DNA from: a virus
Lineage: Duplodnaviria > Heunggongvirae > Uroviricota > Caudoviricetes
Direction: 5' to 3' (one strand)
DNA length: 64,000 nt
IMG/VR virus record: IMGVR_UViG_2703718822_000010
Made by a program: the position numbers
Shown here: one piece after another, positions 6,001 to 9,000 of the stretch
How positions within the stretch are numbered: the stretch's first letter is position 1
How the letters are laid out: every line of letters begins with the position of its first letter

Positions 6001-9000
6001 GCTGTTTTCATTATCCTGTTTCAGTGCTTTTTCTGCCATCTGGATGCGTGTCAGCGTTGCGGAATTTGGGCTAAGTCGATAAACCTGTTTGGCATCTTCC
6101 AGAAGCAGGGCGATAATGTGCTTCAGTTCTGTTTCGTTCATAGTTAACTCCGGTAGTTGCAATTTATTAATATCAGGCGGTCAGTTCTTTAAGCTTCTGA
6201 ACTGCTTTATTCATTTCATCCATACAGTCGATGAATTCGTCCAGTTTAAGCTGCATTTTTCCGGCGGCCTGAAGAATTTCAAGTTTTAAGGGCGCAAGTT
6301 TTTTGTTGAATACATCATCTTCCTGGCGTTTTTTCTCCGCAATTTCGGCGGCTTTCAGCAATTCTTCCGCCTGCTTTCTGAGTATTTCTGGTGAAGGTGA
6401 AACTGCTTTTAGGTTATTCATTTCAGGTTCCTGTTGTTGCAGAATTAATTTGTTGCATTCTCTGCGTGAGCGTTTCATTGCAGATTCGCACTTCTTGCAA
6501 TAAATGGCTCTCCCGTCACGTTTGCTGGCATCTGAATAAAAATCATCGACTGATTTTGTCTGCCCGCATCTGGTACATAATTTTGATTGAAGGTCCTTAA
6601 TGATTGTGACGTTTCCTTCCCGCTTGGGATATCCATATTTTTTGTGGCGGAAAAAGGTTACTCCGTTACCAGAACCTTCTTTTCTGACCTTAAATACAAT
6701 GATGCTTTCCCGTTTATCGATAAAATCTATGAGCTGGTTTCTCTCCTTTCCTGACAGTTCGGCAAATGTCTTAACTTTTTTAGTAACTTCCGTAAGGCGA
6801 ACGCCGTCAGGCATTTTTTCAACGAAGTTTTTAATCTCTGCAAGCGGACGCCATAATTTTTGCGGCAAAACTGAAGGCGTGGTCATCAATCACCTCGCTT
6901 TTTTTTACTGATTTGTTTATGCCAAAAATAAAGGCCACCATCAGGCAGCCTTGTTTTTCTGTTTGCTAAGTTCTCTGGCAATCATGGCCGTAGTTCGTAT
7001 TGCCCACACCATTGATTTGTATCAATAGTCGTAGTCATCCGGATAGTCCTGGTATTGTTCCATCACATCCTGTGGATGCTCTTCGAACTCTTCAAATTCT
7101 TCTTCCATATCTCACTTCAAATAAGTGGTTTGCTGCCTAATTTTATTTTCTGGCGACCAACACAAGTCACACCCAGTTTCACTGCGTGGCTTGCGGTAGT
7201 AAATTTTGTTAGTCCAAACAATAAAATCTACCGAAGTGGGTTATGACCATTTTTTATTTGGATTTCGTTGGTGAGCGTGGTTAACAACTCTGTGCATTAT
7301 ATCCTCATATTTTTCATCTTTAATTTTTTCAACATCTCGAGGAAATGGTGTTGCTAATGCTTTGTCAACTTTGTCCATTGGGTCTTCATTAATCTTATAT
7401 TCCGGACCGTCATCTATAGCATTAAATCCAGGTGTTATACCGTTTTCTAATGCATATGCTATTCTCTTTTCCCATCTCGCTATCCTCCTTCTGTCTCGAG
7501 ATGTAAGGCTTCTATCAGATACTTTTCTGTTTTGTCCGCGATTAGGATTAACATAAATAGTCTTTTTCACCATAAGCATACTCAATAAGTCCATACGGTG
7601 GTTTACTGTACAATTTTATTTTTTGAACTGCATGTATTTTGTTTCCTAATGGGTTTGAATCCTTGTAATAAGTACTTCTGTTTTTGCGCTCGACTTCTTC
7701 TGCCTTCTTGTTGCGAAGGCTGCCGAGTGATGCTGCTTTGTCTGCTCTGACGCAACCAGAGATCTTTAGCGCAATCTTCCGCGTCAGTCTTTCACTACTG
7801 CGCCGCTCTGCAATAAGTTCTTCCCTGCGAGCTTTATAGCGGCTTTTTGCCGTACCTTTGGATTCTTTCCAGATTATGGTTACCATGATGGTCTCCTTTA
7901 AGTGGCTTTGGTGTATGACGCGTCGAGGTGTTTTTCTTCTCGATCGCGGCCTTGCAACTGAAATTCGCGTCATCCCCAAAACCACTTAGATTTTGGTCTC
8001 AACGGTTAGGTTGAGAGTCCATCAATGTTAAAGAGCCTGCCAATCTGTTCCGTTTGGCTTCCAGCGTCCTGCTGTTGAATTGAAGATAACCTAAGTTATC
8101 TGATTGTGCAATAACTATATTTATCACTTTATGGAAAACGTTATAAATGGCTGATAACAAAAATATTTTATTTTTTGTGGTATCCGCGTGATATTTTCAA
8201 GGGGGAAAGGCTGATTGTTATGGGTGATTGCATGTTAATCGAAGGGGAATTTGGTGTGTTGCACCAGCGGGTAGTCGAAATTCTAGGGGTGTCGTTGCTT
8301 GAGGTTATTGCTACTGGGGAAGCTATTTCAGCAGATGCTATTGCGGGAATGATCCGAGTGCTTCACCATGATGAATTGGATGATCTCGCTGTGAAGTTAG
8401 CTATAGATGTGTTACTTCAGGATATGCGACTGTGTAATTAAGTAAATAAAACCCGGCACTGGAGCCGGGGGATTTAGAAATGGCATTTTATGAATTGGCT
8501 ACTTGGCGAATGGTTTACCATCGGTGGTATTGAGCACAATAAAAGGCCGTTCTTCGTGAGTGTTCTTATAGCAAAAGTTCAGTTGGAGTCTGATTACCAG
8601 CTATGTGATGACCAGAACACTCGTCCTATGATTTTTACGTTTTTGTAGAATTCTTCTCTGTTCATTACTTCATCAGGATACTCTTCGCGGTTTATCGATC
8701 TGATAATTACCGATGTTGGTGTGGCTATTAGCGTTTTTACCCTTAACAAATCAGCTTGGCAAATTGCATATGTTTTACCATCCCTGATGCTCGTATCTTG
8801 CGTGTTTACCCCCACCACATCACCATCATGGAGTGTTGGCTCCATACTTTGCCCAACAACCCTGACCAACTTTGCCGCTTTTTCTGGAACTCCCATTTTT
8901 TTCAGGTAATAGCGCCTAAAAACTAGAGAGAATTCTGCGGACTCCTCCAATGCACAACTTCCTCCGCCAGCTGAAAGTGAAATATTTAGAAGGGGGAGCG

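Follow-up and report, generated by a model that had tools for sequence, protein, structure and literature searches.

A conserved gene beside the left operator of Shiga-toxin-type and P22-like prophages encodes a putative YmgB/AriR-like protein

Introduction

YcgZ, YmgA and AriR (also named YmgB) of Escherichia coli are small cytosolic connector proteins. AriR/YmgB switches on the Rcs phosphorelay by way of the cytoplasmic part of RcsC and needs neither RcsF nor the periplasmic domain of RcsC (PMC11709261, PMC6900184, PMC3509220). It also binds the TGS/helical domains of SpoT via helix 3, on whose surface Arg74 is needed for the interaction, and raises ppGpp (PMC10704370). A phage origin of the ycgZ-ymgAB genes has so far been raised only from their gene neighbourhood (PMC3509220). 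Here, we describe a small gene whose product is quite probably a distant, phage-borne relative of this family. It lies on the plus strand at 8232-8441 of a 64,000-nucleotide stretch of viral DNA (Caudoviricetes; IMG/VR record IMGVR_UViG_2703718822_000010), henceforth called the window, the source of which is a Shiga-toxin (Stx)-type prophage with a lambdoid early region.

Few stretches of DNA have been studied as closely as the immunity regions of lambdoid phages, and still this conserved open reading frame (ORF) beside the left operator OL is undiscussed in the searchable literature, which likewise holds no mention of any AriR-like phage protein; neither the paper on BstA nor that describing phage BTP1 mentions the ORF. 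In the window it stands between the OL matches and the 3' end of cI, and the two directions of transcription converge. A preliminary description of this DNA had placed a separate gene here, in the slot where lambda has rexAB, and this position is confirmed in the window as well as in its relatives.

Results

On the plus strand, an open frame extends from 8175 to a TAA stop codon at 8439-8441, and it would encode 73 residues from the ATG at 8220 or 69 residues from the ATG at 8232. The preliminary description had proposed an acidic protein of 73 residues, converging on cI and preceded by a ribosome binding site (RBS) of its own. The frame from 8220 indeed has this strand, length and character (13 Asp and Glu against 4 Lys and Arg, isoelectric point 4.3; 4.1-4.4 in the family, with 12-16 acidic against 4 basic residues), and an RBS is at hand for either start: GGTGAT, read directly from the plus strand at 8223-8228, for the ATG at 8232, and GGGGGAAAGG at 8201-8210 for that at 8220. 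What does not stand as well is the start codon, since the sequence makes 8232 more likely than 8220 and the product a protein of 69 residues. The relatives all begin at the position aligned with 8232, the RefSeq/PGAP annotation of an E. coli genome of 99.8% identity has 8232-8441, GGTGAT is a good Shine-Dalgarno match, and a conserved -10 element lies 34 nt upstream of 8232, close to the 27-32 nt seen in the family, but only 22 nt from 8220. GAGG, AGGG or GGTG occupies the equivalent Shine-Dalgarno place in 44 of 50 relatives.

The protein matches phrog_3946, a PHROGs family to which no function is assigned, over its full length (E 3.2e-30, 104.8 bits; residues 6-70 of the 73-residue form against profile positions 2-67 of 67). 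Among 16 diverged alleles the median dN/dS is 0.095, with a dN of 0.06-0.19 and saturated synonymous sites, and the variable columns are distributed over the three codon positions as 35/20/61. To judge from this pattern of substitution, the ORF is a real gene under strong purifying selection on its protein.

An AlphaFold2 model computed from a 29-sequence alignment including distant representatives (predicted local distance difference test (pLDDT) 86.5, predicted template modelling score (pTM) 0.73) shows a soluble protein of three helices, comprising residues 3-28, 34-44 and 52-62; an earlier model from 13 close sequences had reached a pLDDT of 65 and was not used. Two independent structure comparisons returned the same isolated best match, E. 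coli YmgB/AriR, whose crystal structure (PDB 2OXL) has the same three-helix fold. Foldseek assigned this match a probability of 0.98, with template modelling (TM) scores of 0.59/0.65, and the next match a probability of 0.12; among the viral structures of BFVD there was no match to the fold. The structure prediction thus gives a confident model with an AriR/YmgB-like fold, which fits the 'regulator' that the preliminary description had offered as one of its options.

At the level of sequence profiles, hhalign aligned the family to YcgZ/YmgA/AriR with a probability of 60-71% and E values of 4e-5 to 8e-5, in an alignment of 42-44 columns that is confined to helices 1-2. The scores were 28.6-30.5, whereas a reversed control scored 14.0 and none of 30 column shuffles exceeded 15.7, and the register is that implied by the fold (FFAELHPQVVEVLGTALMQVLVEQREPSREAL against RYFAKANLHTQQETLGEIVTEILKDGRNLSRKSL of YcgZ). 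Reciprocal hidden Markov model scores were 14-20 bits, reaching up to 19.6 bits. The most conserved segment of the family is helix 3 (DLAVELAIDVL), which is acidic. Scans of the ORF protein and 15 family members against Pfam, NCBIfam and PADLOC gave no credible match, and no similarity to RexA or RexB; matches to Fe-S_assembly, YjfB and RecA, with E > 0.04, were treated as noise. The UniRef name 'DUF2767 domain-containing', carried by one protein (P0048), was dropped, as the Pfam scan did not support it and no mention of DUF2767 was found in the literature.

A profile search of the protein database recovered 616 homologs, all from Enterobacteriaceae, and when 1.84 billion cluster representatives were scanned exhaustively with HMMER, just 62 clusters at 50% identity matched, so that the family is a narrow one. 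By tblastn, the protein is found in Stx1a phages and in PA28 and 06-3462 (97% identity), whereas P22-like Salmonella phages (epsilon34, ST104, g341c, SPN9CC and others) and Klebsiella prophages carry it at 44-49% identity; MG40 is a further carrier of phrog_3946. The ORF is encoded in 56 of 50,697 phage records, among which those of HK022 and P22 are not included, and the allele of the window occurs in 50 of 5,426 complete E. coli genomes. Within the family, the window protein is part of a divergent E. coli/Stx-phage branch, which has the C-terminal tail LQDMRLCN in place of LPKE and starts with ATG instead of GTG.

Several relatives carry altered alleles: in g341c (locus L058, about 3010-3213) a tryptophan codon has become an in-frame stop, in locus L066 three residues are deleted, and in locus L032 loss of the stop codon yields a read-through product of 90 residues. 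These natural variants, above all the nonsense allele of g341c, suggest that the gene is dispensable for phage growth. Like a moron, the ORF has a conserved, predicted promoter of its own, a homolog expressed in a lysogen, a nonsense allele and a patchy distribution; a terminator of its own is lacking.

In 27 representative loci the gene order is constant: an N/24-type gene that lies about 600-700 bp further left on the minus strand, the ORF on the plus strand, none to three variable cargo genes on the minus strand, a cI-type repressor and cro. Every relative has the ORF to the right of PL/OL and in the orientation opposite to N and cI, while repressors, operators and cargo differ between loci. 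The cargo between ORF and cI includes BstA (307 residues, locus L023), a P63C-domain protein (ST104 orf23), a DUF7946/DUF7947 protein, a BamE-like lipoprotein and several proteins of 130-350 residues that belong to no family; in the window there is none. Cargo-bearing relatives are the loci L023 (3249-4172), L002 (2722-3801), L073, L062, L086 and L087. As the order persists while the neighbours are exchanged, the ORF forms the constant outer edge of a variable, cI-proximal accessory slot, and as far as comparison of the loci can tell, some lambdoid, Stx and P22-like prophages carry it as an accessory module fixed to the right edge of OL. The module itself is facultative: the nutL-N segment is common to lambda, 21, HK629 and mEp235, which lack the ORF, and homology to them ends at about 8075-8083. 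The ORF is thus kept across related immunity regions in which much else changes.

Upstream of the ORF, the relatives share the motif ATTT(A/T)ATTTT, followed after 12-15 nt by TGn and a -10-like hexamer (CATACT, GATACT or TATGCT; TATTTT in the window), and then by an A-rich leader and GAGG or AGGG. Of 50 distinct upstream sequences, 45 contain the extended -10, at a distance of 27-34 nt from the start codon, and 40 contain the A/T motif despite differing operators. On the plus strand of the window, the motif reads ATTTTATTTTTT and lies at 8165-8176, in the -35 or UP position, and it may act as an UP-like element, as bent DNA or as the binding site of a factor. The predicted extended -10, TGaTATTTT, follows on the same strand at 8189-8197, with a predicted transcription start site (TSS) near 8204. 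A third OL operator overlapping the promoter was considered and dropped, as no such site with two or fewer mismatches to the operator consensus exists, and no operator-like site within this limit is present between 8125 and 8220. The conserved extended -10, with no operator over it, leads us to predict that the ORF has its own repressor-independent sigma-70 promoter of the extended -10 type.

Downstream, at 8452-8469, lies a GC hairpin (CCCGGC and GCCGGG around a 6-nt loop), which the preliminary description had taken for a bidirectional terminator shared with cI. However, its U-run serves the cI side only. The terminator scan calls the hairpin on the minus strand alone, with the tail TTTTATTTAC (also given as UUUUAUUU), the tail on the plus strand, the side of the ORF, being GGATTTAG (also given as GGAUUUAG), and the perfect hairpins of relatives have a U-run on the cI side in 14 of 16 cases and on the ORF strand in one of 16. 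By these features, the hairpin is the predicted intrinsic terminator of the leftward cI transcript, the equivalent of t_imm, and a poor terminator for the ORF strand.

Is the gene expressed in lysogens? Its homolog in prophage BTP1 of Salmonella Typhimurium D23580, STMMW_03522, is annotated on the plus strand at 377620-377790, and its end, 35 nt short of the 3' end of bstA, matches that of the ORF in locus L023. In lysogen RNA-seq, it is transcribed in all 17 conditions, at 17-53 transcripts per million (TPM; Owen et al. 2020, PMC7067206 Table S5). The authors set TPM 10 as their threshold for 'expressed' and TPM 100 for 'highly expressed' genes (PMC7067206), and STMMW_03522 goes undiscussed there because its values lie above the one and below the other. 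Across the conditions, its Spearman correlation is 0.10 with N, -0.03 with cro, about 0 with ral and a non-significant 0.40 with cI, to be compared in the same data with 0.80 for the pair N-cro and 0.90 for cI-bstA. With no correlation to N, cro and ral and a weak one to cI, STMMW_03522 behaves as an independent unit active in lysogens, transcribed independently of the lytic (N, cro) and cI-bstA units.

The annotated start of STMMW_03522 at 377620 is doubtful, because the corresponding codon in locus L023 is CAC, which is not a start codon (L023 3010-3045 equals D23580 377587-377622). A conserved GTG with a GAGGA RBS lies 33 nt further upstream; it is probably the true start, which would give a protein of 67 residues and make the deposited 56-residue product truncated at its N terminus.

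The setting of the ORF in the window is that of a lambdoid early region. Two matches to the operator pattern ATAAC-N4-GTTAT, ATAACCTAAGTTAT at 8086-8099 and ATAACTATATTTAT at 8111-8124, constitute OL (8086-8124) and form the left boundary of the ORF module. To the right, the cI-type repressor, with a helix-turn-helix and a Peptidase_S24 domain, occupies 8594-9301 on the minus strand, and is followed by three operators of the right operator region OR (9313-9375), by cro (9412-9636) and by cII (9752-10048). The three OR and two OL sites each have no or one mismatch to the pattern, and the OR sites are evenly spaced at 24-25 bp. To the left, on the minus strand, lies an N-type antiterminator gene (7551-7886), whose 3' end is overlapped by an ORF of 117 residues at 7241-7594, also on the minus strand and part of the pL operon. 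The latter matches phrog_5632, 'Nun-like transcription termination factor' (E 2e-69), and has no match in Pfam and NCBIfam scans; the nun gene of HK022 is located beside cI and is expressed from the prophage.

Further right, a direct repeat of 70-85 nt occurs in three copies (10112-10180, 10202-10271 and 10945-11037) with cores that are 89-100% identical. The copies lie upstream of and within an ORF of 358 residues (10302-11378) that adjoins a DnaC-like gene, they encode the recurring peptide QQPEADWVNP, and they are possibly iterons or origin repeats. Matches at Rfam gathering level fall within 15265-15447, 16289-16378, 17176-17266 and 21718-21929, and represent isrK (15265-15338), directly followed by C4 antisense RNA (15364-15447), two copies of sRNA-Xcc1, and STnc100. 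As no Rfam family matches at the ORF locus, a known small RNA there was ruled out.

Discussion

What can be discerned about the role of this protein? Like YcgZ, YmgA and AriR, the ORF protein would be a connector expressed in the lysogen, binding and modulating another protein rather than DNA. Its partner would probably be a conserved host protein, and one other than that of YmgB, as is to be expected from a helix 3 that is acidic rather than basic and in which Arg74 is apparently not kept; a conserved protein beside exchanged phage regulators also argues against an immunity-specific phage partner. The outcome would be lysogenic conversion, in which stress, envelope or stringent signalling of the host is altered, and possibly also capsule-mediated protection against other phages or a stabilised lysogeny. 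ppGpp biases the development of lambda and of Stx phages. Activation of Rcs and colanic acid are known routes to broad phage resistance (PMC7553319, PMC11541549, PMC12753057), so that an action through Rcs would reconcile the idea of exclusion with an indirect mechanism.

That a connector acts on a host regulator is the main explanation that we put forward, tentatively and with a confidence that stops somewhat short of even. Rcs and SpoT are the obvious first candidates for its partner, unlikely as it is that either will prove to be the one. Bolder, and on the doubtful side, is the idea of a constitutive phage version of AriR/YmgB that binds RcsC/RcsD, SpoT or a new target and switches lysogens to a capsule-bearing, acid-resistant, low-motility or high-ppGpp state, protecting them against other phages and stabilising lysogeny, with the chromosomal ycgZ-ymgAB genes descending from such a phage gene.

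Several observations weigh against this reading. The evidence for expression comes from a homolog of about 44-48% identity in another phage and host; in the part of the Canals 2019 supplements available to us no mapped TSS near D23580 377,560 was found, and in the available part of the D23580 proteomics table the STMMW_03522 protein was not found. A generic -35/-10 scan called no plus-strand promoter for the ORF, which it misses because the -35 is poor. The Pfam YmgB family PF10798 matched none of 15 family members, even at E <= 10, with AriR (90.3 bits) and YcgZ (24.9 bits) recovered as positive controls; we therefore refer to the protein as YmgB-like rather than as a member of the family. 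A profile search of PDB sequences misses 2OXL, and its matches to Syo1 and USP28 are chance. Finally, aligning helix 3 (ADVIRKTLEIVL against VDLAVELAIDVL) puts an invariant valine opposite the SpoT-binding Arg74 of YmgB, in an alignment that was made manually and in an uncertain register, as those of the tools stop short of this helix.

Alternatively, the ORF protein might tune the phage's own switch by binding the C-terminal domain of cI, or Cro, N, cII or cIII. Such a function would suit a gene that lies within the immunity region beside OL, converges on the cI operon, is transcribed in lysogens with a weak, non-significant correlation to cI, and encodes a connector-type fold fit for protein binding. 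Yet the ORF protein is conserved next to repressors that range from 127 residues to S24-containing proteins of 200-366 residues with different operators, and next to N-type genes that fall into different clusters, while the nutL-N module does without it in lambda and its three companions. Moreover, the cI of ST104 is annotated as HK022-like, yet neither HK022 nor P22 is among the records that encode the ORF, and the in-frame stop of g341c suggests a gene dispensable for growth, so that we regard a role in the switch as unlikely. A direct superinfection-exclusion or defence factor, acting on a protein of the incoming phage, appears more improbable still, even for a gene bordering the cI-OL slot, the site of rexAB in lambda and of BstA in BTP1 (PMC7067206, PMC8585504), with a homolog constitutively transcribed in lysogens and with the dispensability of an accessory gene. 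No PADLOC model matches the protein; a membrane segment, nuclease, NTPase or partner gene is likewise absent, and in the window so is any adjoining cargo. Unlike exchanged defence cargo, the ORF remains constant while the cargo varies, and BstA expressed alone works without it (PMC8585504).

The small size and the acidity of the protein had led the preliminary description to consider a DNA mimic, and a promoter predicted to require neither N nor derepression would allow an anti-restriction or anti-defence protein to be made at once on infection. Neither fold nor composition bears this out: no Ocr/ArdA-type or other known mimic is among the fold matches, the best being a connector that binds proteins, and the ORF product is hydrophobic (grand average of hydropathicity 0.70) with a moderate net charge, which leaves a mimic very unlikely. 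The least probable case, bordering on the negligible, is that transcription itself matters, by convergent interference or as antisense RNA to the cI-cargo operon. Most relatives do lack a good plus-strand terminator after the ORF, such that antisense transcription into cargo and cI is possible; however, purifying selection acts on the amino acids, in contrast to the saturated synonymous sites, the RBS and the position of the start are kept, and the AlphaFold2 fold is confident. An effect of transcription would be secondary at most.

With a connector of host signalling as the preferred explanation, the ORF is a conserved, lysogen-expressed candidate modulator of host signalling in Stx and BTP1-type prophages. 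If the link to AriR/YmgB is true, a prophage protein would plug into the Rcs phosphorelay or SpoT, with a bearing on how Stx or BTP1-type prophages alter biofilm, acid tolerance, capsule, phage susceptibility and induction, hence toxin release, and the YcgZ-YmgAB connectors of E. coli would have a phage origin. The ORF also marks the fixed outer boundary of the cargo slot that houses BstA and others, and is useful for mining this slot for defence and accessory genes.

How does the ORF compare with described systems? DicB of the Qin prophage (PMC6832061) shares the concept of a short prophage protein that acts on host proteins with consequences for phage susceptibility, but it is unrelated in sequence, fold, locus and regulation, and is an analogy only. 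Lambda rexAB, BTP1 bstA and other cargo genes lie in the same interval between cI and OL and are expressed during lysogeny, as is the ORF homolog (PMC7067206). However, such cargo is variable and, on the minus strand, is transcribed together with cI from the promoter PRM, whereas the ORF is constant and lies on the opposite strand behind its own predicted promoter, and its protein resembles that cargo neither in sequence nor in fold. Specifically, it has no homology to RexA/RexB, is predicted to be soluble where RexB is a membrane protein, and is encoded opposite to cI. Closer in fold are AriR/YmgB, YcgZ and YmgA of E. coli K-12 (PF10798; 2OXL), from which the phage protein differs by the absence of an N-terminal extension of about 25 residues, by the acidic helix 3 and, in the manual alignment, by an Arg74 that is apparently not kept. 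Their genes form the four-gene operon ycgZ-ymgABC, repressed by BluR and under the control of BluR/BluF/MarA, while the phage gene stands outside such an operon, singly, beside a prophage operator between OL and cI and behind a promoter predicted to be constitutive. Its nearest counterparts, STMMW_03522 and the ORFs of epsilon34, ST104, SPN9CC, MG40 and the Klebsiella prophages, are unannotated or 'hypothetical' and, at 44-48% identity to the window protein, represent the same family in the same position, on the same strand and with the same promoter motif and RBS.

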